Below, piece by piece: positions 3,091 through 28,270 of a DNA stretch of 59,173 nucleotides (the stretch's first letter is position 1; each line of letters begins with the position of its first letter). Under the pieces are notes generated by a model that saw only the letters and a list, made by a program, of their open reading frames with translations, did no database searches and was not told where the DNA came from. The DNA is from an uncultured Gammaproteobacteria bacterium (GTDB lineage Bacteria; Patescibacteriota; Patescibacteriia; Magasanikbacterales; GWA2-37-8), in assembly GCA_964482695.1 (NCBI GenBank), contig CAYZYP010000005.1, positions 1 through 59,173 of the forward strand, in the 5' to 3' direction. A program made the position numbers and the translations under genes.

Positions 3091-3220
3091 AAATTCCCCC
3101 AAACAGTAGTCAAAATAAGGCTTAAATTAAATACTTCCACGACTTCCCCCATTTCTTCCCTGTAAGATGAGGGAAGTCTTTTTTTATACAATTACCGCAT
3201 AATTTTTGTGCGGTTTTTTT

Positions 3221-3373: not shown

Positions 3374-3380
3374 CTTTTCT

Positions 3381-3544
3381 TTGGGTAAAGAGTATTTATT
3401 TTTTTTGGGAACGCCCGACAGGGCAGACCAAAAAAATAAATACTTTACCAAGGAAGTAATGGATTAAAGTTTTCTCGCCCTCGCCCAAACCTGCCCGATT
3501 TGGGCGAGGGCGAGAAACAACGCTTACTCATTAACTGGATTATA
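3381..3544 (+). other. Putative double-strand replication origin of element 1
   Basis: Two long hairpins (3381-3451, 3471-3519) then TAACTGGATTATA, paralleled by TAATCTTGATTATA upstream of the second Rep. Confidence 0.5.
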
Positions 3545-3592
3545 TGTACATATTTGGACGCAAAATTTCATTACTATTTTATTTCAATAATT

Positions 3593-4474: not shown

Positions 4475-4491
4475 TATGATACTATATGAAA

Positions 4492-4616
4492 GCTAAACCA
4501 ACACAATTTATATATCAGAAGATTTTATTATTTTTGTCCCCAAAAAGGGGCGGTTTCTGTCCGACAAAAATATCTTCTGATATTTGCGTTGGTTTAGCCA
4601 GAACCGTCCCTTTTTG
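4492..4616 (+). ncRNA. Conserved pseudoknotted leader RNA upstream of integrase, copy 1
   Basis: Nested stems plus loop-to-3' pairing, covarying with 26148-26274; TTGAAA..TG.TACTAT promoter just upstream. Confidence 0.75.
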
Positions 4617-4635
4617 TTTTTAATAATTTTAATAT

Positions 4636-12604: not shown

Positions 12605-13465
12605 TTAAAATAGCGTAGCTTGTTTATTTGAATTAATCGGGTCGTCTTTATATAAAATGGAAAAAATTCTTCCATTTTCGTAAAAGCATTCTCCATAACA
12701 TGGCATTTTTTTGCCACTAGCAAAAGGAAAGAAAGTTTTATCTGACAAGGTTTGTTTAGAATCTAAACAAAATTTTATTAAGTGGTCGTTTGGTATAATA
12801 GTATTCTTTTTAAGTAAATATTTAAAATTTTTAGATTTTGACCAAAATTCAATATGGCACTTGGGTGTTATTTTTTCTTCAATTTCAATCAGTTTATTTT
12901 GTTCTTCGTTAGGCGGTTCTTCTATGTCTTCATAAATGCAGGAAAGACAAACGCAATCCACGGGGCTTGAACGAGCAAATTTTATCACAAAAGCTTGAGC
13001 AGAAGCATTATATTTATTTTTTAAAAACTGGAAACTGCTTATTGAAAATCCGTTATTTACAAAATCATCTTTTATAGTACTTGAGGGAATTAAAAATTCG
13101 GCCGCTCCTATGTTGCACAATAACTCTGTGTAGTCATGTGATTGATAGCTTGGTTTATTTAAAAATAACTCCGTTAAATATTTACTTATTTCTTCATTAT
13201 CAGCAATAAGTTTGTGCGTTATTTCGTGAAAAATAGTAAAGGTTTTGCGCGGTTGATATGTTATTTTATTGTTCAAAACAATTATCCCGTTTACAATATC
13301 AAAAAAAGCATCCTGATCCTTCTTAAAGGGGGACGCTTCAGTTATCTTTAGGTCGAGTTTGTCTAATATCTGGTCGCATGTTGGATAATTTGAAAAATTA
13401 TTTTTTAAAAAATTTTGCACCATTTCTTCGACCATGGTATCCAAATGATACTTACTGTTTTCCAT
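12605..13465 (-). CDS. ImmA/IrrE-family metallopeptidase
   Basis: RKTFTIFHEITH, ELLCNIGAAEFLIP. Confidence 0.88.
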   Translation of the reverse strand: MENSKYHLDTMVEEMVQNFLKNNFSNYPTCDQILDKLDLKITEASPFKKDQDAFFDIVNGIIVLNNKITYQPRKTFTIFHEITHKLIADNEEISKYLTELFLNKPSYQSHDYTELLCNIGAAEFLIPSSTIKDDFVNNGFSISSFQFLKNKYNASAQAFVIKFARSSPVDCVCLSCIYEDIEEPPNEEQNKLIEIEEKITPKCHIEFWSKSKNFKYLLKKNTIIPNDHLIKFCLDSKQTLSDKTFFPFASGKKMPCYGECFYENGRIFSILYKDDPINSNKQATLF

Positions 13466-13865
13466 TTAATACATTTTTTAAATATAAAAATAGGTTAGCC
13501 CATTCCTCTTTTGTTTCTGGCTGGCTGCCTCTATATTCTACTTTTTGCAGTGTTTTTATCCACTGCTTACCATTTTCGTCGGCAAAAAAATCTTTAAATT
13601 TTTCGTCCTCAACCAATTCTACCAGACCCTTAGACAGGGTATTTAAGTTTATTTCTTCATCATTGTTTGCACCACTCAAAATTTCTGAAAGTGTTAAATT
13701 ATAGAATTTAGCAATTTTTTCTAGGGTTAAGACAGTAGGCTGTGATATACCACGTTCAATTTCAGATAAATATGGCAAAGAAATACCTGTACCCTCGGAC
13801 AATTTCTTGAGAGTTAAATTTTTTTCTTTTGTTCTTATATTACGCAATTTTTCGCTAATTTTCAT
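13452..13865 (-). CDS. XRE-family HTH repressor
   Basis: LTLKKLSEGTGISLPYLSEIERG..P. Confidence 0.9.
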   Translation of the reverse strand: MKISEKLRNIRTKEKNLTLKKLSEGTGISLPYLSEIERGISQPTVLTLEKIAKFYNLTLSEILSGANNDEEINLNTLSKGLVELVEDEKFKDFFADENGKQWIKTLQKVEYRGSQPETKEEWANLFLYLKNVLNGKQ

Positions 13866-13931
13866 ATGACTTTAGAATACCATTCTTTTGTAGTTTTGTC
13901 AATGGGATAATTTATCCACAGGATTACGCTA

Positions 13932-14052
13932 TTGACATAATTTAGCCTTTGGATTAAAATATCATATGAATTCTGCTTATCGCCCTAAATGTTGTCTGAT
14001 AGCCCTTTAGATAGGCTATGAATGGTCGACAGGACATTTTACCCTAAGCGGA
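13932..14052 (+). promoter_or_regulatory. Promoter plus long hairpin 5' leader
   Basis: TTGACA-N17-TAAAAT; nested stems TTCTGCTTA/TAAGCGGAG, AAATGT/ACATTT, ATAGCC/GGCTAT. Confidence 0.5.
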
Positions 14053-14088
14053 GAGTAATAATAATTTATAATTTAAATTTATATCTCT

Positions 14089-14295
14089 ATGGAAAAATAT
14101 TATGTTAACAAAAACGCCCAAGAAAATGGCGATCATGAGGTTCACAAACCCGGATGTTCCTTTATGCCAGAGCCAGAAAATAAAATGTATTTAGGTGAAC
14201 ACTCGGGTTGCCGAGGGGCAGTTTTAGAAGCTATCAAACATTATTCACAATCAAACGGGTGCTATTATTGTTGTAATGCATGCCATACTCAATAA
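14089..14295 (+). CDS. Small Cys/His-rich conserved hypothetical protein
   Basis: YYVNKNAQ.NGDHEVH..GC...NGCYYCC..CH. Confidence 0.75.
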   Translation: MEKYYVNKNAQENGDHEVHKPGCSFMPEPENKMYLGEHSGCRGAVLEAIKHYSQSNGCYYCCNACHTQ

Positions 14296-14302
14296 TTTTT
14301 TT

Positions 14303-14545
14303 ATGACTTTACCTAAATACACACTACAGTACGATGAAAAAAAAGAAAAATGGGCTCTTGAAAATGACAAAACAGACAGGGTAATCAGAAATTTTAGTAC
14401 AAAGGATGAAGCCACTAAAGGCGGAGTTCTAGAAGATGTACTCGGACAGGCTGGTGGTTCTGTAAAAATTCAAAAACTGAACGGTCGTTTTCAAGAAGAA
14501 AGAACTTATCCAAGAAGTGAAGACCCAAAAAAATCAAAAGGTTAA
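14303..14545 (+). CDS. DUF2188-family protein
   Basis: FSTKDEA, SVKIQKLNGRFQEERTYP..DP..SKG. Confidence 0.8.
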   Translation: MTLPKYTLQYDEKKEKWALENDKTDRVIRNFSTKDEATKGGVLEDVLGQAGGSVKIQKLNGRFQEERTYPRSEDPKKSKG

Positions 14546-14586
14546 ATATTAAGACAAGCATATAAAAGAGCCCCATTGGGGTTCTT

Positions 14587-15423
14587 TTATTTTTTATCCC
14601 CCTTTTTTTTGAAAGTTATAATATTTTGATGTTGGTGATTGATTTTATAGGCGTATGGATATCCAAAAGGATATAGTGGTTTATTATTTTGCAGTAGAAT
14701 TGTTGTGCCAGAAAACTCAAACCCTATATTATTCATAAGTTGAACTATATCACTTTGTACACATACCTCTTTTTTTTCAACTGTAAAATCGCTAATAATA
14801 ATACTTGTGTATCTACCGTCTTTTAATTTTTCATAGACATTTGCCATTATAGAGCCAAATATGTTGAGAAAGCCGTTATAATCTTTTTGATTTCCCAAAT
14901 CATTTTTATCATTAGAATAGTACTCTACACCAATTCTTGATCCACTTCGTTGGTCTTCTTTTTTAGCTCTTAATCCCTGCCCATTATTTTTTAAAATATT
15001 ATGGTATGGTGGCGAGGTTACGCAATAATCAATTTTACCTTTTATTTTTGGAATCTCTTTTAGAGAGTCGCCATTAATTACATTTTGCCCTTTCTTTATC
15101 CCAAATTCGGCCAGTCGGTCCTTTGCTAATTTACAATACTGTTTACTCAAATCAATTCCAACCCCTTTCCTTTTCAGATTATGACAAGCTAGTAGGGTTG
15201 TTCCAACCCCGCTAAATGGATCTAAAACAGTCATCTCTTTTTTTGTAAACATTGATATAAGTTTTTCAATGTCTTTAATCAAAAAAGGTGCTGGATGTTT
15301 GAATGCAAACTTATCTTCTTTACACTTTTCGCTAAGCCAAAAACTTTTTGTTAATTTTAGCCATTCAGTGCCAGTCAAATTATTCAGTTTGTTTCTTTTG
15401 TCATATTTTCCTTTCATAATCAA
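14587..15423 (-). CDS. DNA methyltransferase (N4-C/N6-A class)
   Basis: HPAPF, VLDPFSGVGTT, VTSPPY. Confidence 0.9.
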   Translation of the reverse strand: MIMKGKYDKRNKLNNLTGTEWLKLTKSFWLSEKCKEDKFAFKHPAPFLIKDIEKLISMFTKKEMTVLDPFSGVGTTLLACHNLKRKGVGIDLSKQYCKLAKDRLAEFGIKKGQNVINGDSLKEIPKIKGKIDYCVTSPPYHNILKNNGQGLRAKKEDQRSGSRIGVEYYSNDKNDLGNQKDYNGFLNIFGSIMANVYEKLKDGRYTSIIISDFTVEKKEVCVQSDIVQLMNNIGFEFSGTTILLQNNKPLYPFGYPYAYKINHQHQNIITFKKKGDKK

Positions 15424-17849
15424 AACTTTTTTAGAATCACGTTAATTGTGTCCCCAGTGATATTTCTTGAAGATTTTATATTGTTTATATCATCGTAGAA
15501 TAGATAACCCCAGTTATATTTATTAAAACTATCTATAAACAGAGGATCTTTTATACTCAAAAATTCATTCTTTCTTTTGTTTGGTAAAAGCATTATTTTT
15601 TTGATTCCGACATCAAGATTAGAAGCTCTTTGAATTCCCGAAGTAAAATTAGTCGAATTCTCAACTTCAATAACATATTCGACTTCATTTTTTTTGTTTA
15701 TCCAAACCATATCAATCATTTCAATTCTACTTCTTTTTTCTTTTTCGAATCCCAAAGTATCCAGCTTATTGATATCTGCAAATTCAACTAATTTTTTCCC
15801 ATTATAATTTTCGGGTTGTTCTCTTTTTCCAATATATACTGTAAAATCCATTTTTTTGCCAATTTCGGAAAGGAAAAATAACATTTCTGTATGCTGTGTA
15901 AAATCTTTTTCTGTTTCACCACCTTTATAAACCCACTTACCGCCAGACTTGTTAGCATATTTTTTTAGAATATGATCAACAGATTTTATGTCAGGAGTTA
16001 ATCCATTTGGATATTTAACAAAAATTTCACCCAAAACTTGGTCAAAAGTAACAGATACTTTTCTTCTTAATAAAGATATAATCGTGTCTTCAACTCTGTC
16101 TGTTAATTTTTTATCGGGATATTTAATGTATTCATTTGGATTTTTGAACCACCAATATTTTCCTGCGATATCCTTTGTGTCTGTGATTGTAAAAATATCG
16201 TCCGTATGTTTTGAGAGCATCTGTTCAATATTTTTATCAAAATCCTCTAAATCAAATCCGGCTGATGAAATTTCTGCTAACAAACCATTAAATAAAATTT
16301 GGTACGGCGTTGGCTCATTTCTTAAAGCGATTAAACTAATCGCTTTCTGCACAATGAAGTGTTCAAATTCCTCTTCGTTAGTTTTAAGGTTTGTGATTGG
16401 CTTTTTAATACACCTAATATAAAAATCTGTTGCTGATGTACCATATGGATTGGCTACATTTGATTCTCCGGTTCTTCTATTTTGTTGGTGTATAACTTTT
16501 TCAATTTTGAAACCGGATAGGGATATGGCATTAAGAAATGCATTCCAAATTTTAATATCTTTATTGTGAAAAGTAAAAATTATTTTGCCGTCTGATTTTA
16601 AAACTTTAAAGAGATTTTTTATACCATTCTGAAATTTAATTTTATAAGTATCCAAATCTTGAATATTATTTTTAACTGTAATTTCACTCTCATAGTTTGG
16701 CACAAGTTTAGTGTCATATTTTTTTAACCACACTAACCATATAGTGCTTAAATCTAAATACTGAACCAGACCACCATATGGCGGATCAGTCATTATAAAG
16801 TCAACGGAATCCTCGTCTAAATAATCCGTTATCGTATTTATATCTATAATACCGTATTTTATGTCAAAACTTTTTGTCTTGTTGCTTTTATTACTTTTAT
16901 CAACAAAAAGTATTTTTGGGATTTTGCCTAAATATTTTTTAACATCACATAGCGAACTTGCGACTGATTGTTTACCGAAAAAACTCCCTTCAAATACTAA
17001 AAGAGGGTTCATTTCCATTTGTCTGTTGGCACATATATATGCTGATCGTCCCCAACTGGTTGAGTAACTCCTATTAGCACCGGCTCTACGAGGGACGCTC
17101 ATTTTTGTACATAAATGAATTGATTTTATAAAGCCAAGCATAAGCTGTTTTTTGACTTCACTATCCTCAACTAATTGGATTTTATTGAAAATTTTAGAAA
17201 TTATATATAAATTTCTTTTTGTCCACAAATTATAAAAATGATTACCACCTATGCACTCAATAAAATTCGCAGAAAAAGATGGTGAATGATAAAACTCATC
17301 TTGTGGATACCAATCACTAATCGTAATTTTATTTATTCTTTTAACTCTCTCTATTTCTTCTTCGTTTGGTTTTTCTAAGTATCTAGTTATTTTGCCTTTT
17401 TTACAATTATGACACTCTATTCCAATTTCATATATAATTTTACTTTCCCATTTTACATTTTGAATTACAGCCTCGCGTGATCCGCATTTCCGACATTTTG
17501 TGTGAAACAATTTAACATATCCGTCATCTATTTTTATTTCATTAAAAATTTTATCTACAGCACTTTTTAGTTTTTCTTTGTCAAATTCAGTACAAAATAC
17601 TTCAATCAAAAAAGAGGTTAGGGGGTTTAAGTCGAAAGCAATAGCTTTTCTTCCTGCCTTAACTGCTTCAAAAGCACTCGTAGCACTACCGGCAAACGGA
17701 TCTAAAAAGATTCCATTTTCCGGAGTGTAATTTTTTATGTATTCCCTCCAAATATTATGTGGTTTTTTACCCCAATACTTCATCGCAGTATATAGCGGTG
17801 GTCTCGTTTCTTCTACTAACGCAAAATTTATATCTTCAATTTTTTCCAT
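15420..17849 (-). CDS. Large DNA methyltransferase with zinc ribbon and putative C-terminal PD-(D/E)xK-like nuclease
   Basis: KYWGKKP, FLDPFAGS, CxxC..CxxC, TDPPY; C-terminal IDMVW...IEVENST. Confidence 0.8.
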   Translation of the reverse strand: MEKIEDINFALVEETRPPLYTAMKYWGKKPHNIWREYIKNYTPENGIFLDPFAGSATSAFEAVKAGRKAIAFDLNPLTSFLIEVFCTEFDKEKLKSAVDKIFNEIKIDDGYVKLFHTKCRKCGSREAVIQNVKWESKIIYEIGIECHNCKKGKITRYLEKPNEEEIERVKRINKITISDWYPQDEFYHSPSFSANFIECIGGNHFYNLWTKRNLYIISKIFNKIQLVEDSEVKKQLMLGFIKSIHLCTKMSVPRRAGANRSYSTSWGRSAYICANRQMEMNPLLVFEGSFFGKQSVASSLCDVKKYLGKIPKILFVDKSNKSNKTKSFDIKYGIIDINTITDYLDEDSVDFIMTDPPYGGLVQYLDLSTIWLVWLKKYDTKLVPNYESEITVKNNIQDLDTYKIKFQNGIKNLFKVLKSDGKIIFTFHNKDIKIWNAFLNAISLSGFKIEKVIHQQNRRTGESNVANPYGTSATDFYIRCIKKPITNLKTNEEEFEHFIVQKAISLIALRNEPTPYQILFNGLLAEISSAGFDLEDFDKNIEQMLSKHTDDIFTITDTKDIAGKYWWFKNPNEYIKYPDKKLTDRVEDTIISLLRRKVSVTFDQVLGEIFVKYPNGLTPDIKSVDHILKKYANKSGGKWVYKGGETEKDFTQHTEMLFFLSEIGKKMDFTVYIGKREQPENYNGKKLVEFADINKLDTLGFEKEKRSRIEMIDMVWINKKNEVEYVIEVENSTNFTSGIQRASNLDVGIKKIMLLPNKRKNEFLSIKDPLFIDSFNKYNWGYLFYDDINNIKSSRNITGDTINVILKKF

Positions 17850-17948: not shown

Positions 17949-18548
17949 ATGAATAACCTAACGCAAAGACAAAAAGAAATTTTGGAGTTTGTTACCGAGT
18001 ATATCAAGGAAAATGAGAGGTCCCCCTCGTTTAATGAGATAAAGGATAAATTTGGTCTTTCGGCTCTGTCTACAGTCCACGAACATATCACTGAATTGGT
18101 GGAAAAAGGGTTTTTACGCCGTGATGAGCGAAAAGAACGAGGGTTGTATCTACCAGCCAAACGCCAACAATATATTGAGGTGCCTTTGGTTGGGGCGATT
18201 GCTTGTGGTAAACCGATTGAAGCCATAGAAATGCCGGACGAATTTATTAGAGTTGTGCGTGAAGATTCTTTACGAGGCAATATCTATGCTTTGAAAGCCA
18301 AAGGCGATTCAATGATCCAAGAGGGCATATTTGACGGCGATTTTATCATAGTCAAAAAGCAAAGCGTGGCGGAAAATGGCGATACCGTGGTGGCGATTAT
18401 AGATGATAATCAAACAACGCTTAAAAAATACTTTCGGGAAAAAGAAAAAATAAGATTGCAACCTGCTAATCCGAAATACGAACCAATTTACAGAAAAGAG
18501 GTTGAAATAAATGGCGTGGTGGTAAAAATAATTCGTAATTTAAAATAG
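17949..18548 (+). CDS. lexA: LexA repressor
   Basis: LT.RQKEILEF wHTH, IACG cleavage region, GDSM catalytic Ser, TLKK. Confidence 0.9.
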   Translation: MNNLTQRQKEILEFVTEYIKENERSPSFNEIKDKFGLSALSTVHEHITELVEKGFLRRDERKERGLYLPAKRQQYIEVPLVGAIACGKPIEAIEMPDEFIRVVREDSLRGNIYALKAKGDSMIQEGIFDGDFIIVKKQSVAENGDTVVAIIDDNQTTLKKYFREKEKIRLQPANPKYEPIYRKEVEINGVVVKIIRNLK

Positions 18549-18714
18549 TCATTATTTGTAGAAATGCCAGCAAGAAAAATACTCGGGGGCTGTGGATTTA
18601 ATCTGGTTTAGTTCACCTTAATCGCTTTCCTTTGAAAATCTCTCGCAGGTTTTCAGAGTCGGAAGCGGATTAAAGTCGGACGCAACCATTTTATTAACCA
18701 TAACTTTCAAGTAT

Positions 18715-18885
18715 ATGATTGCCAAAATTAGCACTCGTACGGGACAAACGACAAAAGTGTCGGGTCAATATAGACCGTCAGGCGCTAAGTCGGAGATAAC
18801 CCTTTCAAGGGGTGATCGCGTTCCGCCTTACAGCGGAAAGGCTAAATCTTTTACTTTAGTCGATAAGACTAAACATAAGAGATAA
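18715..18885 (+). CDS. YjzC-like small protein, 56 aa (not in ORF track)
   Basis: MIAKISTRTGQTTKVSGQYRPSGAKSEITLSRGDRVPPYSGKAKSFTLVDKTKHKR. Confidence 0.65.
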   Translation: MIAKISTRTGQTTKVSGQYRPSGAKSEITLSRGDRVPPYSGKAKSFTLVDKTKHKR

Positions 18886-18954
18886 TAAACCTTTACGCTA
18901 TCTTGCTGGCATTTATGCAAACAAACTTTGCAATACCCCTCACAAACCAACCAC

Positions 18955-19767
18955 ATGAAAAATTTTGTTCACAAAATAAAAGACAAAATGCTCGAATTTA
19001 CGAAGCTATTTTGTATTGAAACAAATATTTTTCAGCGGTTTGTTATTGTTTACAAATATTTCAAATTTCTAAACACCGAGCCGATAGTCAAAGATATTTT
19101 GCAAAAGATTTTTGACGATACGGCCAAGATTATTGGCGAACCAGAGGAAAATATGGACGAGGACAAGTTTTTGAAAGTAAAAGGCGATGCTCTTTTTTCC
19201 CGTGAGTTTTGGGTGTATTACACCAATTTGGAAGTAATATATGGGAAAATGAAAAAACTTCAAAAGTGCCATTTGTCGGATAAAAACGAGTTTGAACAGT
19301 TGTCTAAATTGTTTTCAAAACCCTACTCCAAAAAAATGCTCGAATTGTCTTTAGAAGTAATAAACAGCGAAGTTTTTAACCGGCTTGATCAGAAAGTTTT
19401 TTGCGAAGACGACGAGCATGACGGCGAAACCTACTTTGACGAAAAAAGAAGCGTTTTATATGTTAAAGGCGAGCCAATAAAAATAAACAAACAAAGCAGA
19501 ATTACCAACGCCCACAAAATTTTAAAATATATTTTTATAACTAATAAAGATAATTTGGATGATGATTTTTTTTATTCGGAAATAGCCGAAAATGAATTTC
19601 ACGAATTGGAATATGGCAAAAGCCGAAGGACATCTGAAACCTACCGATTAGCTTGCCGTGAAATACAAGAAAAGGTAAGAAAACAAACAAAAGACAAGAT
19701 TGAAGATTTTTTGATTTTTAATACGGGCAAGGCTGGATTTGTTAAAATAAATAAAAAGTATTTATAA
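18955..19767 (+). CDS. Element protein with putative C-terminal winged-helix domain (homolog of 2296-3090)
   Basis: Shared C-terminal motifs with 2296-3090. Confidence 0.7.
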   Translation: MKNFVHKIKDKMLEFTKLFCIETNIFQRFVIVYKYFKFLNTEPIVKDILQKIFDDTAKIIGEPEENMDEDKFLKVKGDALFSREFWVYYTNLEVIYGKMKKLQKCHLSDKNEFEQLSKLFSKPYSKKMLELSLEVINSEVFNRLDQKVFCEDDEHDGETYFDEKRSVLYVKGEPIKINKQSRITNAHKILKYIFITNKDNLDDDFFYSEIAENEFHELEYGKSRRTSETYRLACREIQEKVRKQTKDKIEDFLIFNTGKAGFVKINKKYL

Positions 19768-19860
19768 AAATTTATTGATATCAATTGAAGCAATGACCGG
19801 GGCAAAGAAAGAAGAATAATATTCCTCAAACTTTGCCACCGGTTTTTTCCTCCTAAAATA

Positions 19861-19932
19861 TCACGGGGCTAGGAATCGAACCTAGGCCTCCGGGTTATGA
19901 GCCCGGCGAGCTAACCACTGCTCTACCCCGCG
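19861..19932 (-). tRNA. tRNA-Met (CAT), initiator-like body with paired C1-G72
   Basis: CGCGGGG TA GAGC..GCTC G CCGGG CTCATAA CCCGG AGGC CTAGG TTCGATT CCTAG CCCCGTG A; no CCA. Confidence 0.88.
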
Positions 19933-19935
19933 TAA

Positions 19936-20009
19936 TTGTAAGGGTGGGATTTGAACCCACATTCTCCCGGAGAAATGATTCCGGGCGCTTCGCCAATAGC
20001 GGCCTTACG
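19936..20009 (-). tRNA. Atypical tRNA-like gene with 8-nt anticodon loop containing CAT
   Basis: Acceptor CGTAAGG/CCTTACA, intact T arm GTGGG TTCAAAT CCCAC, stem CCCGGA/TCCGGG with loop ATCATTTC. Confidence 0.55.
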
Positions 20010-20025
20010 CTGTACTTATTCCCTA

Positions 20026-20352
20026 CTAGTACTCCGCGACCACCTCCTTCTCCAAGCGCAGCTCGGGCTCGCCGAGCCTGTTCCAGAGCACCCAGGTGCT
20101 GGGGCTCCGGTGGGCGATGATGATGTGATCGTTCTCACACTGTGCGAGCTCGTTCCGCTTGATCTTCTGGGGCTCGCCGATTTTGATGGAGGTGAAGGGG
20201 TTGCTTCCCCTGAAGTAAGAGACCTCCTTGACGGTCAGGTCGTCGCCGTCCTCCTTGATGACGACGACTGCCTTCATCTCCTGCACTTTTTTGTCAAACA
20301 CGCGACCCATCAAACCGATAAAGGCGAAGTTGCCAGGCTGCGGCTCAAACAT
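20026..20352 (-). CDS. GC-rich ORFan, 108 aa
   Basis: AAGGAGA SD before ATG; many G/C-ending codons; no family recognised. Confidence 0.7.
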   Translation of the reverse strand: MFEPQPGNFAFIGLMGRVFDKKVQEMKAVVVIKEDGDDLTVKEVSYFRGSNPFTSIKIGEPQKIKRNELAQCENDHIIIAHRSPSTWVLWNRLGEPELRLEKEVVAEY

Positions 20353-20382
20353 GACTCACTCTCCTTTTGCCCATCTTGGGCG

Positions 20383-20417
20383 AAATTAAAGAACCCCCGT
20401 CTTCCGACGAGGGTTCT
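20383..20417 (-). terminator. Attenuator terminator 2
   Basis: AGAACCCTCGTC-GGAA-GACGGGGGTTCT-TTAATTT. Confidence 0.75.
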
Positions 20418-20447
20418 ATTTAGATTTATGAACTGAATGATTCAAAT

Positions 20448-20513
20448 CTAAGCAAAACCTTCATCAGAAGACTTCGACATAGACATCATCATATTTTTAA
20501 GTTGAAAATTCAT
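20448..20513 (-). CDS. Met-rich leader peptide 2 (MNFQLKNMMMSMSKSSDEGFA)
   Basis: 4 Met in 5 codons; 3' part GTCTTCTGATGAAGGTTT is complementary to terminator 2's 5' arm and loop. Confidence 0.75.
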   Translation of the reverse strand: MNFQLKNMMMSMSKSSDEGFA

Positions 20514-20530
20514 AATATAGTTTTAATTTA

Positions 20531-20560
20531 ATAAAAAATCCCTCGCTTTTGGCGAAGGAT
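20531..20560 (-). terminator. Attenuator terminator 1
   Basis: ATCCTTCGC-CAAAA-GCGAGGGAT followed by a T-run. Confidence 0.8.
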
Positions 20561-20581
20561 CTATTTGCGTTTTTTATTTGC

Positions 20582-20662
20582 TTATGAAATATGAAAAAAC
20601 GCGCCTTCGCCGAAAGAAGTCATCATTGCCATCATTTTTTGTGCGTTTATATAGTTTTGCAT
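20582..20662 (-). CDS. Met-rich leader peptide 1 (MQNYINAQKMMAMMTSFGEGAFFHIS)
   Basis: 4 Met in 5 codons; CTTTCGGCGAAGG.GCGTTTTTT pairs with AAAAAACGC..CCTTCGCCAAAAG overlapping terminator 1. Confidence 0.75.
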   Translation of the reverse strand: MQNYINAQKMMAMMTSFGEGAFFHIS

Positions 20663-20671
20663 AACAAATTT

Positions 20672-20699
20672 ACTTTATCACATGTTCAAAAAATGTCAA
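20672..20699 (-). promoter_or_regulatory. Sigma70-type promoter of the Met cassette
   Basis: TTGACA-N16-TAAAGT with extended TG. Confidence 0.65.
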
Positions 20700-20889
20700 T
20701 GGCTCTCGTGTGGATAACCATATACTATTGGGACAAATTATACTTAAAAAACCTCTTAACAGAGGCTTTTCTTGTGTTTGGGTCAAAAATTTATGTAAAT
20801 TTTTACCAACCCAGTTTTTCTAAACTACCCTCACGCAAACAAGAAAGGTCGATTTGCGAAACTTAATTCATCAAGAAAGCAATAAAACT

Positions 20890-21153
20890 ATGTATAAGTT
20901 AACAGGTATCCTCAAAAAAGAGGAAGTAAGGGAATACACCCGAAAAACCGGTGAACAAGGAAAAAGCCGAACATTATTCATCGAGCCAGAGGGAACAATC
21001 TATCCGGTAAAGGTCAACGTCAGCGATATGGACTTCAAGGTCGGCAAAATTGGCGAAAAAATAACTTTGGATGTCGCCATTTTCCCTTATTACATCCAAA
21101 ACAAGCAAAGACAACGGGCTTTCATGGATATTTATATCCCTAACAAGAAATAA
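20890..21153 (+). CDS. Inovirus pV-like ssDNA-binding protein
   Basis: 87 aa, beta-rich with YTRKTGEQG hairpin, first gene of the virion operon. Confidence 0.6.
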   Translation: MYKLTGILKKEEVREYTRKTGEQGKSRTLFIEPEGTIYPVKVNVSDMDFKVGKIGEKITLDVAIFPYYIQNKQRQRAFMDIYIPNKK

Positions 21154-21156
21154 TTT

Positions 21157-21360
21157 ATGGACTTCATAACCGCCACAACCACTTTCACAGTCAGCCGTTT
21201 CGGCCTGCAATTTGTGCCGTCATCGGCAAAAACAGCATACGCTCTCACGGACAAAGCATTGGACTTGATAAATTTTTTCAGCCAATTGCTTACTGTTTCG
21301 TTTGGAATATTGTTTGGGTTGGTCGTGCTTATGATTGTCCTTTTAATTTTCAAATCCTAA
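21157..21360 (+). CDS. Small single-TM virion protein
   Basis: C-terminal TM; position between SSB and coat gene. Confidence 0.6.
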   Translation: MDFITATTTFTVSRFGLQFVPSSAKTAYALTDKALDLINFFSQLLTVSFGILFGLVVLMIVLLIFKS

Positions 21361-21361
21361 T

Positions 21362-21472
21362 ATGACTGGTCTAATTGTCAACATATTTTCCGGTTTGGGT
21401 TTGAGCCTTGTTTTCCCCTTGGTCTTATTCGTCGTCTTAAATTTATTCTTAGCGATAATGTCGAGCAAATAG
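21362..21472 (+). CDS. Small TM protein, pVII/pIX-like, 36 aa (not in ORF track)
   Basis: MTGLIVNIFSGLGLSLVFPLVLFVVLNLFLAIMSSK; 1-nt gaps to neighbours. Confidence 0.65.
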   Translation: MTGLIVNIFSGLGLSLVFPLVLFVVLNLFLAIMSSK

Positions 21473-21473
21473 T

Positions 21474-21626
21474 ATGTGTTCACTATATATCTTACTCAAC
21501 AATTCGTGCTACTTGGACAATTTCCTTTTGATAGGAAAAGTCTTTGCTAAAGCGATTACTTTGGGTTTGATTATGGGAACAGTGGTCGGCGTACTAGTAT
21601 TATTCGTTAGGAAAATTAACTCATAA
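21474..21626 (+). CDS. Small TM protein, pVII/pIX-like, 50 aa (not in ORF track)
   Basis: MCSLYILLNN...AITLGLIMGTVVGVLVLFVRKINS; tightly packed. Confidence 0.6.
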   Translation: MCSLYILLNNSCYLDNFLLIGKVFAKAITLGLIMGTVVGVLVLFVRKINS

Positions 21627-21630
21627 ATAT

Positions 21631-21900
21631 ATGACTAATAAGATTGCAGATCTTATCTTGGGTACTAAAGCCAAATTGTCCGTCTTGTCTCTCGCCATTG
21701 CTGGTGGAGTGTTGATGGCCAGTAACGCTTTCGCCGCAGTCGATCCCGATGTTGCTTCCACGACCCAAACCATGGTGTCCACGATGAAAGAGAATGTGAC
21801 TGGTGTTATCACCACTAACATTTCTCAAATCGTAATTGTTGGTGTCATCATCTTCTCATTGACTTTTGTGTGGCGTTTGGCTCGCAAATTCATGAAATAG
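21631..21900 (+). CDS. Inovirus major coat protein (pVIII-like)
   Basis: Signal peptide ending AFA, acidic N-terminus, TM helix, basic C-terminus WRLARKFMK. Confidence 0.8.
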   Translation: MTNKIADLILGTKAKLSVLSLAIAGGVLMASNAFAAVDPDVASTTQTMVSTMKENVTGVITTNISQIVIVGVIIFSLTFVWRLARKFMK

Positions 21901-21907
21901 GCAAACC

Positions 21908-21941
21908 GGCGGGGGCTGGCAGTAAATCGCCAAGCCCCCGC
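21908..21941 (+). terminator. GC-rich hairpin after coat gene
   Basis: GCGGGGGCTGGC/GCCAAGCCCCCGC, in the usual position after filamentous-phage gene VIII. Confidence 0.55.
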
Positions 21942-21987
21942 TAAGGGAATTAAAAAATAAATTTATCTATGTCCAAAATCATTATTT

Positions 21988-23559
21988 ATGTTCAGCAAAT
22001 TAAACACAATAAAAACAGTCCTTGTCTTTGTCCTCGCTGTTGTCGGTATACTGTTTTTTGCCGGCCACGCAAACGCTTACCAAAAACAAGGAATATTCGA
22101 CACCGGAGTATATTTCTCAAGCGGTAGCAATAGAGGAATGCTGTGGACGGATAAAACAGGATTATCTTCGGCCAAGGTGCAAAAAATTGTTTTGGCTTTA
22201 TCCAACGGCGACGCTGGCGTCAATTTCAAACTATTTTGCGCCAACGGTACATTGACTCATTTTACTTACTCGGAACCAACAATCGTCACCAGCTCCAATT
22301 TTTACACTTTTAATTTTACCAATAATTTTGCCGAGAATGATATTACTTACTGCATTGTAACTTGCCACAACGGAACCAAGTATTGTGAATATCCGGATTA
22401 TGTTTCACATTTACGTTATTTAGGGGCGAATTTCGACGCCAATACAAAAGTAATTCCATACGGTTCCGGCTATTCGCCGGTGGTGGATCTGTATTTTGAA
22501 GTTTACACGGTTGATGATGTGATTATTCCATTTCAAATAACCAGCCCGCAGAACAACGACCCGGCGGTGGCTGACACTTGGATAACCGTTACCGGCACTT
22601 GCCCGACAAACGGAACGAACCGAATCGGCTTGTCTAATGATTGTTTGGGGTTTGATAAAATTAATTACAATATTGACTGCGCCAGTAATACTTTTTCCGC
22701 CCCATTCTATTACAACGGCCTTGGCGACAAGCGAGTGATAGCCAGAGAAGCTAGTAGCACATCGGGCGACTGTGTTGATTATGACGACAAAATGGATTTC
22801 AAGACCCTGCGGACGATTGAGATTATCGAGGGCTACCCCGACGACTGGTATTTTAATTTTGATTATTATGACGATTACGACATCAAAATCAAAAGCCCGA
22901 ATTTTGACACGGCTCTGACTTTGTCGGCCGGATCCCAGTCCGCCAACTTCACCTTTCAATTTGTTTATCCCAGCTCATCTACTTTAAGCAACCTGCAATT
23001 TATTATTAAGCAGTACGACCCAAATGGCAATCTGCTTAACGGTAGTTATCATGTCAAAACTTTGTCCGCTATGTCTGACACGCAAAATTATGCTGTTACG
23101 CTTTCTGCCTCATCCACCACGCCTTTGCATTATGTCGTTCAACTGACAGAAAATGGCGAAATGAAACGGCAATATCCGTTTGCCATTTATGTCTCGGATA
23201 TTAGCTACACTTACAACAGCAACAGTGTTAATAATAAATACTTTTTTCCTCGGCTAGTGGCCTTGTTAAAGAAAAAAATAATTTTTAATTATTATTTTGC
23301 TTTCCACGACGGCTTCTATAATTTGTTCAACGCCAGCCCAGTAACCGCAATCGGAACTGCCCTTGATATTACTTTCAAAACGATGTCGGCAAACAAGCAA
23401 TACAACACGGACATTAAAATCTTTTCCGCCAGCGATCCCAATGTGGTTAGTTTTGCCAATGGACTGCGTCCGTACATCACGGCTTTTCTCTGGCTCATAT
23501 TCGCCCTGTATTTAGTGCTTCGAGTATCGTATTTATTCAGTGGCAATAATTCAGAATAA
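21988..23559 (+). CDS. pIII-like adsorption protein
   Basis: Signal peptide, Cys-containing beta-rich ectodomain, C-terminal TM; follows coat gene. Confidence 0.7.
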   Translation: MFSKLNTIKTVLVFVLAVVGILFFAGHANAYQKQGIFDTGVYFSSGSNRGMLWTDKTGLSSAKVQKIVLALSNGDAGVNFKLFCANGTLTHFTYSEPTIVTSSNFYTFNFTNNFAENDITYCIVTCHNGTKYCEYPDYVSHLRYLGANFDANTKVIPYGSGYSPVVDLYFEVYTVDDVIIPFQITSPQNNDPAVADTWITVTGTCPTNGTNRIGLSNDCLGFDKINYNIDCASNTFSAPFYYNGLGDKRVIAREASSTSGDCVDYDDKMDFKTLRTIEIIEGYPDDWYFNFDYYDDYDIKIKSPNFDTALTLSAGSQSANFTFQFVYPSSSTLSNLQFIIKQYDPNGNLLNGSYHVKTLSAMSDTQNYAVTLSASSTTPLHYVVQLTENGEMKRQYPFAIYVSDISYTYNSNSVNNKYFFPRLVALLKKKIIFNYYFAFHDGFYNLFNASPVTAIGTALDITFKTMSANKQYNTDIKIFSASDPNVVSFANGLRPYITAFLWLIFALYLVLRVSYLFSGNNSE

Positions 23560-23560
23560 T

Positions 23561-23809
23561 ATGTTTAATTTACTGGAAACAATCCTCGTCAAAGTGTTCT
23601 CGCTTTTGCCCGACGCCGATCCCAACAATTCTGTTATTGCGTCCGTCAACAGCGCCTTTGCCGTTATCACGCCGACCATAGCCAAGATAAATTTAATCTT
23701 TCCGGTTTACACTCTGTTTAAAATTCTCTTAATGGTTTTGTTTGTGGAAATGACAATTTTTCTTATCACCTTGGTCATTAAAATGGTGGCCTCATTCAAA
23801 CCCCTATGA
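23561..23809 (+). CDS. pVI-like minor coat protein
   Basis: Hydrophobic, N.IFPV motif, overlaps Zot start. Confidence 0.7.
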   Translation: MFNLLETILVKVFSLLPDADPNNSVIASVNSAFAVITPTIAKINLIFPVYTLFKILLMVLFVEMTIFLITLVIKMVASFKPL

Positions 23810-24522
23810 TTACCATTATCACCGGCAAACCCGGAGCCGGCAAAACATTGTTTATGACCGGCAAAGCTCTGGAAATGTTTTTGCAAGGGCAAGATGTTTA
23901 CGCCAATTGGAAGCTGGATTTTTCCGGCTATATCAAAAAGAAAAAATTAGATAAAAAAAAGACGAAATTAGGCAAAGTATATTTCTGGTCGGAAATTCCC
24001 GAACTGCTCCGCATTAAAGGCGGACAAATATTTATTGATGAAGCTCAAGGATATTTTGATTCACGAGAATGGCTGGAAATGCCTCCCTCAGCCAAACAAA
24101 AGTTTTCCGCGCACCGCCACGACATCAGACATGACGACGAGGGCAATATTATTCCTCTTGATGTTTGGGCAGGCGTTCAGCATATGAGCAATATTGATAA
24201 ACGAATTAGAGATTTAGGACAGCATTTTATAGAAGTGAGAAATGTTTTGCGTTTGTTTTTTATGACCTCATATTTTGAGCTTCATGATTTAAAAGACGAC
24301 ACCGTTAAACGCCAAGCGGTTAAAAGAAGTTTTTTTCTGTTCAGCAAGTTAAAGGCCAACTGCTACAACACGCACGAAGCTGTCAATTTTATTGAATATC
24401 CCGAATTTCCATATTACCGGCAATATGACAATGAATATTCCAACGACAACACCGGACTTATTCCCATATCCGATAATGTGCCCCCGTATCACAAACAGCC
24501 AAAAAGGGACCGGATTCGTTAG
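23806..24522 (+). CDS. Zot-like / pI morphogenesis ATPase
   Basis: ITGKPGAGKT Walker A at N-terminus, IFIDEAQ Walker B, HRH, Q...IDKRIR. Confidence 0.9.
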   Translation: MITIITGKPGAGKTLFMTGKALEMFLQGQDVYANWKLDFSGYIKKKKLDKKKTKLGKVYFWSEIPELLRIKGGQIFIDEAQGYFDSREWLEMPPSAKQKFSAHRHDIRHDDEGNIIPLDVWAGVQHMSNIDKRIRDLGQHFIEVRNVLRLFFMTSYFELHDLKDDTVKRQAVKRSFFLFSKLKANCYNTHEAVNFIEYPEFPYYRQYDNEYSNDNTGLIPISDNVPPYHKQPKRDRIR

Positions 24523-24542
24523 AATCCAGCCCCTTTATCCGG

Positions 24543-24830
24543 TTAGGCTAATTTCTCAACCTGCCGGATGTAGAAAAGGTTAATCTGCTTGGGATATTGG
24601 CAGATTATCTGTCCCTTGTCGTTTTTTTGTTCAACGACAATAAAGGATTTAAGAGCCTTTTCGCCTCTCTTAACCTTGAAGCCGTGGTCAAACCACTGCT
24701 TGAAAGTAAGGCAATTAGACTGCGGGTCGTAATTGCCGGCTTCGTCCTCTCCCCAACGGTCGAGGATTTGCCTGCGGACAATGTCAAAGGTTTTCTCTGA
24801 CCCTGTCCAGTTGGACTTAATTTTATCCAT
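24543..24830 (-). CDS. ArdC N-terminal-like ssDNA-binding protein
   Basis: LTFKQW...GFKVKRGEKA, LFYIRQVE. Confidence 0.7.
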   Translation of the reverse strand: MDKIKSNWTGSEKTFDIVRRQILDRWGEDEAGNYDPQSNCLTFKQWFDHGFKVKRGEKALKSFIVVEQKNDKGQIICQYPKQINLFYIRQVEKLA

Positions 24831-25039
24831 AGATAAAAATTAACGGCCTAAATTAAAAACCCGCTGGATTCGGCCGATGAACCGCAACAGGCAAAAAAAG
24901 AGAGCGACTGATAGCTTGCCATAGTCAAGGTGGAGATTTGAAAAATACTACCTTTACTTTGGAAAAGCTGGCGCTAAAATTCAAAGCCCTGATGCGGGAA
25001 TAACAGTCTTATAGTTTAAGCGATCAAATATCTGGAACG

Positions 25040-25142
25040 GCAAGCAAATTATTTTTTCGTCCGTCGTTGCTCGACGGCGAAAAAATAATGCTTGCGAGCA
25101 GAATTGAAGCGAAACGAAGCTTTATATCTAATCTTGATTATA
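25040..25142 (+). other. Putative double-strand origin of element 2
   Basis: Long hairpin 25040-25095 and TAATCTTGATTATA, similar to CTTGATA-type HUH nick sites. Confidence 0.5.
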
Positions 25143-25166
25143 TCCACACATCTAAAGAAAATTGTT

Positions 25167-25961
25167 ATGGCTTTTCCCTACAACATGAAAGTTGTGGTGT
25201 CGGGCAAACAGGTTGAAGTTTATAAATACACAAAGAGCGTCTGGCGGGACTTTGAAAGAACGCAAGCAAGCGTAGAAACCAAACTAATTAAAGAGCCAAA
25301 ACAATTGGACATATTTGAAAAAATTAAACAGCAAAAACAAAAACAAGAATTTTCGGTCAATCGGACACGAACAGAGATTCGCCGACTGATAAATTCAAAT
25401 CCGCAATTAAACAAATTTATGACTTTGACTTTTGCCGAGAACATCACGGATCTAAAACAAGCTAATTATGAATTTAATAAGTTTGTTTTGAGGTTATCTT
25501 ACAAATACCCTAATTTTGAATATCTGGCCGTGCCGGAATTTCAACAGCGTGGTGCAGTGCATTATCATGTCATTTGTAATTTGCCGTTTGTTCACTACAA
25601 TGAGATTTTTGAAACTTGGGGACAAGGCAAAATTGATATTAAGAAAGTCAAAGATGTTACTAATCTTGGTGCTTATGTCTGTAAGTATTTAGGCAAGGAT
25701 ATGTTTGATGAGCGAACTTTTGGAAAGAAAAAGTTTTTTCGTTCGCAAACATTATCCGAGGCAAAAGAATTTTTCGGTTACTTGGCTCAATTATTTGTTA
25801 AAAAGTTTCTCGCTTTTGCTACTCCGGTATTTGAAAAAGTTTTTAATTCCGAGTGGACGGGTGAAGTTACTTATCAAACATACACACTTGATAGTTTGCC
25901 GTTGATGAATGGCCTGTTTGAAAAATTATTTTTCAAAGGCCGATATGCAATTCAACGATGA
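25167..25961 (+). CDS. HUH rolling-circle replication initiator (Rep)
   Basis: FMTLTF, RGAVHYHV, YVCKYLGK; homolog of 3593-4474. Confidence 0.88.
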   Translation: MAFPYNMKVVVSGKQVEVYKYTKSVWRDFERTQASVETKLIKEPKQLDIFEKIKQQKQKQEFSVNRTRTEIRRLINSNPQLNKFMTLTFAENITDLKQANYEFNKFVLRLSYKYPNFEYLAVPEFQQRGAVHYHVICNLPFVHYNEIFETWGQGKIDIKKVKDVTNLGAYVCKYLGKDMFDERTFGKKKFFRSQTLSEAKEFFGYLAQLFVKKFLAFATPVFEKVFNSEWTGEVTYQTYTLDSLPLMNGLFEKLFFKGRYAIQR

Positions 25962-26145
25962 ACAATTAAAAAGTTTCATCGCTTTATACAAGCGAGAATT
26001 TGGCGAAGATATTGACCGAGCCGAGGCACAACGGCAAGCGTCGGCTCTTGTTTCGCTCGTAAAGATTACCTATAAACCGATGACGAGGAGTGAATATTTG
26101 AAAGTCATCGAACTTGCCAAATCTTTGGGGTATGGTAAAATATAA
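25945..26145 (+). CDS. Small helical protein, possible recombination directionality factor
   Basis: MQFNDEQLKSFIALYKREFGEDIDRAEA; between Rep and integrase. Confidence 0.6.
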   Translation: MQFNDEQLKSFIALYKREFGEDIDRAEAQRQASALVSLVKITYKPMTRSEYLKVIELAKSLGYGKI

Positions 26146-26147
26146 AC

Positions 26148-26274
26148 GCTTAACCAATACAACAAACACTCCGAGAGTTTTATTATTTTTGTCCCCAATA
26201 AGGGGCGGTTCATGTCCGACAAAAATTACTCTTTGGAGTAGTTGCGTTGGTTAAGCCATGACCGTCCCTTTTTG
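26148..26274 (+). ncRNA. Conserved pseudoknotted leader RNA upstream of integrase, copy 2
   Basis: Covaries with 4492-4616; TTGCCA..TG.TAAAAT promoter just upstream. Confidence 0.75.
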
Positions 26275-26285
26275 TTTATAATAAT

Positions 26286-27953
<1,668 letters not shown>

Positions 27954-27997: not shown

Positions 27998-28270
27998 CTA
28001 TAGATTATAAACTTCGCGCCGATGTTTAACGCGTAAAATTAACAATATTGTAATTGTACTATCTTTACTTAAATCAAAAATTACTCGATAATCGCCAACA
28101 CGAAAACGATAATTACCAAAATAAAAATTAGTTAACTTTTTAGCGTATTTTAAAGGATTTTTTTGAACAGAAAAAAATGTTAATTTATTCAAAATTCTCC
28201 GCCTCGCGATACTGTCTATTCTTTCCAAATCTCTATGAGCGCTCTCTGACAAACAAAATTTAAAAATCAT
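27998..28270 (-). CDS. RelE/ParE-family toxin
   Basis: YRFRVGDYRVIF, VKHRREVY. Confidence 0.9.
   Translation of the reverse strand: MIFKFCLSESAHRDLERIDSIARRRILNKLTFFSVQKNPLKYAKKLTNFYFGNYRFRVGDYRVIFDLSKDSTITILLILRVKHRREVYNL

Follow-up and report, generated by a model that had tools for sequence, protein, structure and literature searches.

Tandem methionine-codon leaders with attenuator-like architecture ahead of two tRNA-type genes in an inovirus-like prophage of a Magasanikbacterales genome

Organization of the cassette

Our analysis of the 59,173-nucleotide (nt) contig CAYZYP010000005.1 (GenBank assembly GCA_964482695.1) from an uncultured bacterium placed in the Magasanikbacterales (Patescibacteriota), the whole of which is called the window below, revealed a minus-strand cassette in which two leader units in series precede a 108-amino-acid (aa) open reading frame (ORF) and two tRNA-type genes. 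Each unit contains a short leader ORF with a credible start, a cluster of methionine codons, an intrinsic terminator and a mutually exclusive antiterminator. The best reading of this arrangement is ribosome-mediated attenuation on AUG codons, operating twice in series, with a tRNA output that would feed back on the gates. We give this reading an even chance. On it, the leaders would be translated, ribosomes would stall within them, the tRNA would be active and the 108-aa ORF would have some role.

The genome analysed comprises 1.15 Mb in 28 contigs (36% GC, 95.6% complete), of which the window is contig C5. An earlier note, made from the sequence alone, had listed a promoter, leaders, terminators, a Shine-Dalgarno site with its ORF, a tRNA-like gene and a tRNA(CAT) gene on the minus strand, and every one of these elements was found where it had placed them:

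20699-20672, minus strand: sigma-70-like promoter, TTGACA, 16 nt, TG-n-TAAAGT (10 of 12 matches, upstream TG)
20662-20582, minus strand: leader ORF 1, 26 codons and a stop; MQNYINAQKMMAMMTSFGEGAFFHIS
20635-20621, minus strand: Met run 1, ATG ATG GCA ATG ATG, codons 10-14 of leader 1
20616-20604, minus strand: region 2 (antiterminator strand) of unit 1, complementary to 20558-20546 in the 5′ arm and loop of terminator 1
20562-20523, minus strand: terminator 1, stem-loop 20562-20536 and a U-rich tail (−14.9 kcal/mol, z −4.6)
20513-20448, minus strand: leader ORF 2, 21 codons and a stop; MNFQLKNMMMSMSKSSDEGFA
20492-20478, minus strand: Met run 2, ATG ATG ATG TCT ATG, codons 8-12 of leader 2
20476-20444, minus strand: regions 1 and 2 of unit 2, forming a local hairpin or pairing with the 5′ arm and loop of terminator 2 (inverted repeat I1, 29-nt arms)
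20417-20379, minus strand: terminator 2, stem-loop 20417-20390 and a U-rich tail UUUAAUUU (−21.5 kcal/mol, z −5.7)
20366-20361 and 20352-20026, minus strand: AAGGAG and the 108-aa ORF, from the ORF list and the sequence
20009-19936, minus strand: tRNA-like gene (Rfam tRNA, 31.8 bits against a gathering score of 29)
19932-19861, minus strand: tRNA(CAT) gene (69.4 bits; ARAGORN and Rfam)

Leader ORFs and their methionine runs

Places where at least four of five in-frame codons are ATG number six genome-wide (both strands, 1.15 Mb), against 0.29 expected under a simple ATG-frequency model. Two of the six are the runs of leaders 1 and 2, which lie 143 nt apart. The remaining four are found elsewhere in the genome, and most of them read GAT GAT in another frame.

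Start contexts were scored with a matrix trained on 577 host ORFs of at least 250 aa. The ATG of leader 1 scored 5.13, which exceeds 98% of random ATGs and ranks at the 63rd percentile of the 577 host starts; for leader 2 the score was 6.64, higher than that of 99% of random ATGs and at the 81st percentile. Real starts averaged 3.3, whereas 6 of the 8 ATGs within the Met runs scored below 1; the other two, at 20492 and 20480, were moderate. No Shine-Dalgarno site was found before leader 1 or leader 2. Among the 577 host ORF starts, GGAG, GAGG or AGGA occurs between −20 and −4 in 4.7%, against a background of 5.0%; T stands at −1 in 87% of genes, and the upstream regions are A/T-rich. That the host does without Shine-Dalgarno sites is a call from these start-site statistics, the 16S 3′ end with the anti-Shine-Dalgarno being missing from the assembly. 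By the same statistics, the leader ATGs appear to match the host norm in lacking such a site, and both resemble host start sites.

A promoter scan returned five promoter-like sites, against 3.0 ± 1.8 in shuffles, and the promoter is therefore not significant on its own. Its −10 box ends 10 nt before the ATG of leader 1. This spacing suggests that the leader 1 mRNA is nearly leaderless, with a 5′ untranslated region of a few nt.

Terminators and competing folds

For neither terminator did any of 200 shuffles fold as well (0/200 for either). The leader ORF was predicted to pair with the 5′ arm and loop of its terminator at −16.1 kcal/mol in unit 1 and −17.2 kcal/mol in unit 2, energies that were reached by 7 and 1, respectively, of 1000 dinucleotide shuffles of the leader. 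In both units this duplex lies just downstream of the Met run. The complementarity that the earlier note had seen between the sequence after each Met run and the terminator is borne out by these frequencies, and the 17 of 18 pairs that it counted in unit 2 come close to the minimum free energy (MFE) structure of the full unit, in which there are 19 pairs and a single internal mismatch. In unit 1, region 2 forms inverted repeat I7 (13 nt, 92% complementary), with a fold of −20.0 kcal/mol. The antiterminator folds have z-scores of −4.2 in unit 1 and −5.2 in unit 2.

Unit 2 also has a 1:2 hairpin (20476-20453, −7.1 kcal/mol; 5 of 200 shuffles were as good), which begins 3 nt past the last Met codon. 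Its 3′ half, or in a long form the whole stretch, can pair instead with the 5′ arm and loop of terminator 2. The leader stop codon lies 2 nt past region 2, and the layout is one of four regions. Constrained folding with the footprint of a ribosome at the stop codon blocked gave the terminator, whereas in unit 2 blocking the footprint with the first ATG of run 2 in the A site gave the antiterminator (−39.3 kcal/mol). Without constraint, the MFE of 150 nt of unit 2 was the antiterminator at −43.2 kcal/mol, and a cut 3 nt shorter gave the terminator fold at −42.2 kcal/mol; full-length unit 1 gave the terminator fold (−26.7 versus −22.4 kcal/mol). The geometry of leader-peptide attenuation with Met control codons, as proposed in the earlier note, fits these results, since alternative folds are present and the leader stops lie where a ribosome that completes the leader would keep regions 2 and 3 apart.

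Among the Rfam leader families, matches stayed below the gathering score (His_leader 22.8 against 49 bits, PyrR 24.6 against 54). T-box and SAM riboswitch gave no Rfam match at E up to 1 across the cassette, and the other regulatory or small RNA (sRNA) matches were weak and sub-threshold.

The two units as diverged copies

Terminators 1 and 2 are direct repeats 145 nt apart with 71% identity, and the Met runs and a 10-nt block repeat at a distance of 134 nt. Over the whole alignment of unit 1 with unit 2, 82 of 152 columns are identical (54%). Judged from this alignment, the two units are diverged, paralogous copies. The Met run and both alternative pairings are kept in each of them. At position 11 of the terminator 5′ arm, the C of unit 1 pairs with a G in region 2 and a G in region 4, and the U of unit 2 pairs with an A in both of these regions. 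This internal duplication is the sole comparative evidence for the leaders.

Proposed mechanism

When Met-tRNA(Met) is ample, the ribosome would pass the Met run and reach the leader stop. In unit 2 it would there cover region 2, and in unit 1 it would come to rest between regions 2 and 3; either way the terminator would form and end transcription. Slow AUG decoding would instead make the ribosome stall on the Met run, and region 2, thus freed, would pair with the terminator 5′ arm and allow RNA polymerase to read through. Two gates in series would multiply the effect and keep basal expression low. The tRNA with its paired 1:72 end would bind EF-Tu and decode internal AUG, and read-through would thereby raise the AUG-decoding capacity until the gates close again, a negative feedback.

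The two tRNA-type genes

The control codon of the leaders, ATG, matches the CAT anticodon of both downstream tRNA-type genes. The body of the tRNA(CAT) is of the initiator type, with A11:U24 and three G-C pairs adjoining the anticodon loop. Its 3′ acceptor strand, CCCCGUG-A, forms a C1-G72 pair and a G2-U71 wobble, and no CCA is encoded. The unpaired 1x72 with G2:C71 that marks an initiator is therefore not present. The host has its own canonical initiator with C1xA72 (C3:78877) and an elongator tRNA-Met (C6:46766), and all 11 initiator loci found in relatives keep an unpaired or wobble 1x72.

In E. coli, initiator tRNA with a Watson-Crick 1:72 pair is a poor substrate of the formylase (Fmt) and takes part in elongation (PMC6393288). 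The C1-G72 pair, seen together with these E. coli mutants, points to an elongator role, and the tRNA(CAT) is predicted to be an AUG-decoding elongator derived from an initiator. What it has in common with the mutants is the initiator body and the paired 1:72; it differs from them as a natural phage gene with an additional G2-U71 wobble, and its activity is predicted. The earlier annotation as tRNA-Met(CAT) therefore holds as far as a CAT tRNA gene is concerned, and has to be amended to an initiator-derived body with a paired 1:72 end.

In the tRNA-like gene, positions 1 and 72 are mismatched (C1xA72), the D stem has 3 bp, the anticodon loop has 8 nt (AUCAUUUC, with CAUU) and the T arm is perfect. 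ARAGORN missed it at default settings and, with a relaxed threshold, called it tRNA-?(Met|Asn) with anticodon CATT and an 8-nt loop. Without the 7-nt anticodon loop of canonical tRNAs and outside the reach of the standard finders, it is not a canonical tRNA gene, and it could act as a decoy, a processing signal or a quadruplet reader, or be a decayed copy. Its D-arm region (19988-20002) pairs with the 5′ arm and loop of terminator 1 (20544-20558) at −20.4 kcal/mol and resembles region 2 of unit 1. The best of 45 genome tRNAs paired with the same terminator arm at −14.7 kcal/mol (mean −11.8, standard deviation 1.8).

At another locus (G000:C2:88961-89035), ARAGORN reported an undetermined tRNA with a two-base 'tt' anticodon call and the loop TTTTTAA, adjoining a tRNA-Val.

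The 108-aa ORF

The GC content is 0.53-0.60 over 19900-20399 and about 0.29-0.34 on either side. At codon positions 1, 2 and 3 of the 108-aa ORF it is 0.55, 0.32 and 0.86, compared with a third-position value (GC3) of 0.34-0.52 in eight neighbouring ORFs. This pattern indicates a real coding sequence from a GC-richer source. With its GC3 of 0.86, and with a Shine-Dalgarno site where the host employs none, the payload is by composition foreign. A structured non-coding RNA in place of the ORF was ruled out by the codon-position pattern and the lack of an Rfam match.

Homologs of the ORF, searched for among billions of proteins, were limited to P0001 (92% identity) and P0003 (118 aa, 32% identity, E 1.3e-6), which lie on contigs of 1181 nt and 1212 nt, respectively. 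The identical protein is encoded on 4 further contigs, of which the longest measures 4959 nt. A further match, P0002, covered only a beta-hairpin of repeated FctA pilin domains and was set aside as uninformative. No usable family match was found in Pfam, PHROGs, PADLOC or NCBIfam (best NOV3GF23, E 0.025, 15 bits against a cut-off of 165), and none by PDB sequence profile or in the ESM Atlas. The fold search that the earlier note had suggested for this ORF was carried out and gave no fold assignment: AlphaFold2 with three sequences produced an all-beta model with a mean confidence (predicted local distance difference test, pLDDT) of 60.5, and Foldseek of this model against PDB returned 0 matches at E up to 0.001.

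The ORF codons CAC ATC ATC ATC GCC (20129-20113) are complementary to both Met runs, at 20483-20492 in 10 of 10 nt and at 20620-20630 in 10 of 11 nt. Any (ATC)n stretch will pair with (ATG)n, and the match may reflect no more than this. The HIIIA-type residues that they encode are conserved in the protein homologs of the ORF.

Prophage context

The position of the cassette among the phage genes is as follows:

About 19768-20737, minus strand: accessory cassette (blastn gap against related IMG/VR inovirus contigs, junction read in the sequence)
19796-19843, both strands: long closing hairpin (−26.4 kcal/mol, z −4.7)
17949-19767, plus strand: left flank phage genes, with a LexA/S24-type repressor at 17949-18548 (Pfam) and a conserved 279-aa gene at 18928-19767, kept in related viral contigs
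20890-27905, plus strand: right flank inovirus module, with small membrane/coat-like ORFs, a 523-aa ORF, Zot/pI, rolling-circle Rep and serine integrase
23806-24522, plus strand: Zot/pI, within the right flank module
25092-25961, plus strand: rolling-circle Rep, within the right flank module
26286-27905, plus strand: serine integrase, overlapping tRNA-Ser(TGA) (27864-27953, minus strand) by about 40 nt

A Zot/pI ATPase, a rolling-circle Rep, a run of small membrane/coat-like ORFs, an extent of about 10 kb and an integrase together characterize this element as an inovirus prophage. The earlier note had called the locus phage-borne, and the conserved inovirus genes on both flanks agree with this. 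Thirteen related viral contigs of 5.7-12.5 kb were collected from IMG/VR. The closest of them by blastn, L024, is 78-83% identical to the window over 17949-19614 and 20832-25947, and the space between these matching stretches measures about 110 nt in L024 and about 970 nt in the window, the cassette having no counterpart in L024. By blastn the cassette is absent from 13 of the 13 contigs, and no tRNA genes were found in any of them. Since the flanks match L024 and the stretch between them does not, the cassette is an insertion within the inovirus-like prophage, best explained as a self-contained accessory transcription unit ('moron').

On the left the cassette begins directly after the stop of the conserved 279-aa gene, and on the right it ends at a shared intergenic terminator and promoter region. 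Between these conserved phage genes it has its own promoter and closing hairpin, and its order on the minus strand is promoter, leader 1, terminator 1, leader 2, terminator 2, a small hairpin, AAGGAG, the 108-aa ORF, the tRNA-like gene, tRNA(CAT) and the closing hairpin. The orientation is opposite to that of the other identified phage genes (LexA-like repressor, 279-aa gene, structural genes, Rep and integrase). On the plus strand the closing hairpin is followed by TTTTTT and ends the 279-aa gene; the tail on the minus strand is only weakly U-rich.

In another related contig, L029, the same slot after the 279-aa gene holds a different insert (2677-5046), with a reverse transcriptase (RVT_1, E 5e-23), a bAvd-like protein (E 3e-12) and a 153-aa ORF, and this indicates that the slot accepts cargo. 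The L029 cargo is probably a diversity-generating retroelement on an inovirus.

Weighing the attenuation reading

Several observations weigh against attenuation on AUG codons as set out above. The tail of terminator 2 is U-rich to a moderate degree only. Unit 1 has no convincing 1:2 hairpin (its fold of −3.1 kcal/mol is worse than shuffles), and, with its leader stop codon located between regions 2 and 3, a terminating ribosome would separate the two regions instead of covering region 2. The start context of the 108-aa ORF (−8.33, below 99% of the 577 host starts) is very unlike that of host starts, and the ORF may for this reason be poorly translated. The G2-U71 wobble beside C1-G72 leaves the tRNA(CAT) as something that may be either an initiator or an elongator. 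Extra tRNA is no cure for a lack of methionine itself. Internal Met accounts for 1.76% of residues in 11 phage ORFs and 1.79% in 704 host ORFs, and transcription and translation may not be coupled in this host.

The cassette is also a single occurrence. A search for similar leaders had been suggested in the earlier note; it was run and found none, there being no homologous leader, tRNA-type matches aside, in 40 relatives or 400 genomes of the phylum, and none in the 13 related inovirus contigs or in viral, metagenome and genome collections. Protein-based locus searches of viral, metagenome (twice) and genome collections likewise returned no homologous cassette. Scans with exact or degenerate DNA patterns, made for a unit-1-type leader, the T arm, the tRNA 3′ end and the tRNA-like arm, turned up chance or unrelated matches and nothing else: 0 of the 80 genome loci listed had a tRNA context, and the complementary arm was present in 0 of 50 viral matches. 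Of 401 phylum genomes, 223 contained the pattern ATGATGNNNATGATG, and the 30 loci examined (roughly 400 others fell outside this set) were all inside coding sequence or had no terminator. Matches in a phage database were to tRNA only, for example to the adjacent tRNA-Met pair of Gordonia phage GodonK, and were judged to reflect general tRNA similarity.

As to what might open the gates, compensation for phage codon usage was ruled out by the equal Met usage of phage and host. VapC-type cleavage of tRNA-fMet as a trigger found no support, as no match to the PIN/VapC family (PF01850) was detected in the organism's own genome (95.6% complete). With both of these results, the suggestion in the earlier note that the cassette rescues translation after tRNA cleavage is left without support. 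The counter-defence idea developed in PMC10264068 is possible, and with no PIN/VapC member detected in the genome it is unsupported here.

Four other explanations can be set against attenuation on AUG codons. The cassette may exert no conditional control at all, and would then consist of ordinary terminators or decayed duplicated remnants before a largely silent, recently captured foreign fragment, with short terminated transcripts (small RNAs) as its only product, if any, and Met runs that sense nothing. We regard this as unlikely. The cassette is indeed unique, with nothing conserved elsewhere in the 40 relatives and 400 phylum genomes, its payload is unadapted to the host (GC3 0.86, a Shine-Dalgarno-type start) and its tRNA-like gene is aberrant; but Met runs, antiterminator complementarity and host-like leader starts, each improbable, coincide twice, and all three have been kept in both units although only 82 of 152 columns are identical. 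The leaders might instead report on initiation or translation capacity, so that ribosome loading (initiator tRNA, IF2, 70S) would decide and not the speed of AUG elongation. Without a ribosome the antiterminator would then be favoured and RNA polymerase would read through, and the AUG runs would serve as extra in-frame entry points upstream of region 2. Leaderless starts depend strongly on initiator tRNA, and leader 1 begins 10 nt past the −10 box and would be nearly leaderless; in addition, the antiterminator of unit 2 competes in the absence of a ribosome (MFE −43.2 kcal/mol at 150 nt, terminator at −42.2 when 3 nt shorter), unit 1 is without a 1:2 hairpin, and both downstream genes are initiator-like in body or acceptor end. 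Yet 6 of the 8 run ATGs score below 1 against the mean of 3.3 and are poor starts for this host, the MFE of full-length unit 1 is the terminator (−26.7 against −22.4 kcal/mol), the 1:2 hairpin of unit 2 would favour termination when no ribosome is present, and four Met codons in both diverged copies would be left without a reason. This makes an initiation sensor a distinctly unlikely explanation.

Under arrest by the nascent peptide or a small molecule, a drug or metabolite, and not tRNA charging, would trigger stalling at MMAMM and MMMSM, much as happens in the erm, cat and msr leaders. The architecture would be identical to that of arrest-peptide attenuators, and the two peptides have, beyond the Met run, only a loose S-x-x-EG-F tail in common. 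This tail is explained by RNA pairing, as region 2 encodes it; moreover, no resistance-type gene lies downstream and the match between anticodon and control codon would be a coincidence, so that we consider such arrest very unlikely. Even less can be said for sensing between RNAs without a ribosome, to which we allow hardly any probability. Here the AUG runs would pair with CAU anticodon loops in a T-box-like manner or with the AUC AUC AUC of the ORF, and the D-arm of the tRNA-like gene would act in trans as an antiterminator on terminator 1. Its pairing at −20.4 kcal/mol against −14.7 for the best genome tRNA (n = 45), and the complementarity of ORF positions 20129-20113 to both Met runs (repeats I12 and I13), would speak for it, but these complementarities were found post hoc among 19 inverted repeats, (ATC)n automatically complements (ATG)n, and the HIIIA-type residues are conserved in the protein homologs. 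No T-box or riboswitch Rfam match was obtained at E up to 1 beyond weak sub-threshold sRNA, leader or cis-regulatory ones.

A broader form of attenuation on AUG codons, which we offer as speculation with little probability behind it, is a 'fail-open' monitor of AUG decoding. Its gates would open when elongator Met-tRNA is scarce or when initiation on the leaders fails, and would release the re-tooled elongator together with the tRNA-like RNA and its 4-base CAUU anticodon; the pairing of the D-arm with terminator 1 would act as feed-forward, and the system would protect the lysogen or the phage from toxins or defence nucleases that inactivate tRNA-Met. If true, no earlier leader-peptide attenuator would be known that senses Met, that controls a tRNA gene or that is carried on a phage.

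Comparison with known systems

Attenuation on AUG codons would resemble the trpL, hisL, pheL, leuL, thrL and ilv leaders in its short leader ORF, clustered control codons and mutually exclusive antiterminator and terminator, and unit 2 has their four-region form. It differs from these amino-acid operon leaders in its Met control codon, in the lack of a Shine-Dalgarno site (the norm in this host), in its filamentous prophage carrier and in its output, which is tRNA genes and an ORF without known family rather than biosynthetic enzymes; no Rfam leader family was matched. In the full-text literature, where subscription journals are thinly covered, no Met-codon attenuator, attenuator before a tRNA gene or phage leader-peptide attenuator was found. 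Older reports describe attenuator-like leaders before E. coli tRNA-Phe genes.

T-box riboswitches would be alike in sensing the charging of a cognate tRNA through a switch between terminator and antiterminator, and they can occur in tandem. The units of the cassette are, in contrast, about 140 nt long with translatable ORFs, have no Rfam match at E up to 1 and show no UGGU-type bulge by eye.

In the Salmonella mgtCBR leader, translation of two serial short ORFs (mgtM, mgtP) is proposed to control transcription into the coding region (PMC3641672). The likeness to the cassette is two short ORFs in series within one leader; here, unlike there, the units are paralogous, have the same control codon and possess an intrinsic terminator each, and there is no sequence relation. 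Leaderless polycysteine short ORFs in mycobacteria are described as cysteine-responsive attenuators in bioRxiv 10.1101/834739. They are similar in that a short ORF enriched in a single amino acid stands where the mRNA starts, or close by, and controls downstream genes, whereas the cassette uses Met and has a tRNA payload, and its leader 1 is taken to be leaderless from promoter spacing.

Phage-encoded tRNAs have been proposed to evade tRNA-targeting defences (PMC10264068, PMC11555353), and according to PMC10264068 phages generally avoid encoding the VapC target tRNA-fMet. The tRNA-type genes described here are like such tRNAs in differing from the host's at sensitive positions, the tRNA(CAT) at its acceptor end and the tRNA-like gene in its anticodon loop. 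Those tRNAs stand in large arrays of tailed phages, whereas here they would be gated by attenuators in an inovirus of about 10 kb, with no cognate nuclease identified in the host.

If the gates work, leader-peptide attenuation would be extended to methionine, which alone among amino acids has been thought awkward as a control residue since it also starts every leader. Its output would shift from biosynthetic operons to tRNA itself, a direct homeostasis of decoding capacity, and the mechanism would be carried on a mobile element of an uncultivated bacterium with a reduced genome and no Shine-Dalgarno use. The tRNA(CAT), if correctly interpreted, would be a natural initiator tRNA converted by two acceptor-end changes. 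The leader region, if it acts as proposed, would be a compact portable part of about 350 nt that senses Met-tRNA status.

Other features of the window

A ParE-family toxin ORF (27998-28270) comes after the overlap of the integrase with tRNA-Ser(TGA). Positions 12605-17849, upstream of the prophage, contain an ORF for an M78 (IrrE-like) peptidase and two for DNA methyltransferases, one of them 809 aa long, and may form a further mobile or defence-related block. The interval separating the cassette promoter from the phage structural operon contains a perfect palindrome at 20785-20804, AAAAATTTA-TG-TAAATTTTT. A half-site related to it (20656-20672, repeat D2) covers the −10 box of the cassette and the start of leader 1. 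The palindrome is a possible candidate operator for the LexA-type repressor of the phage.

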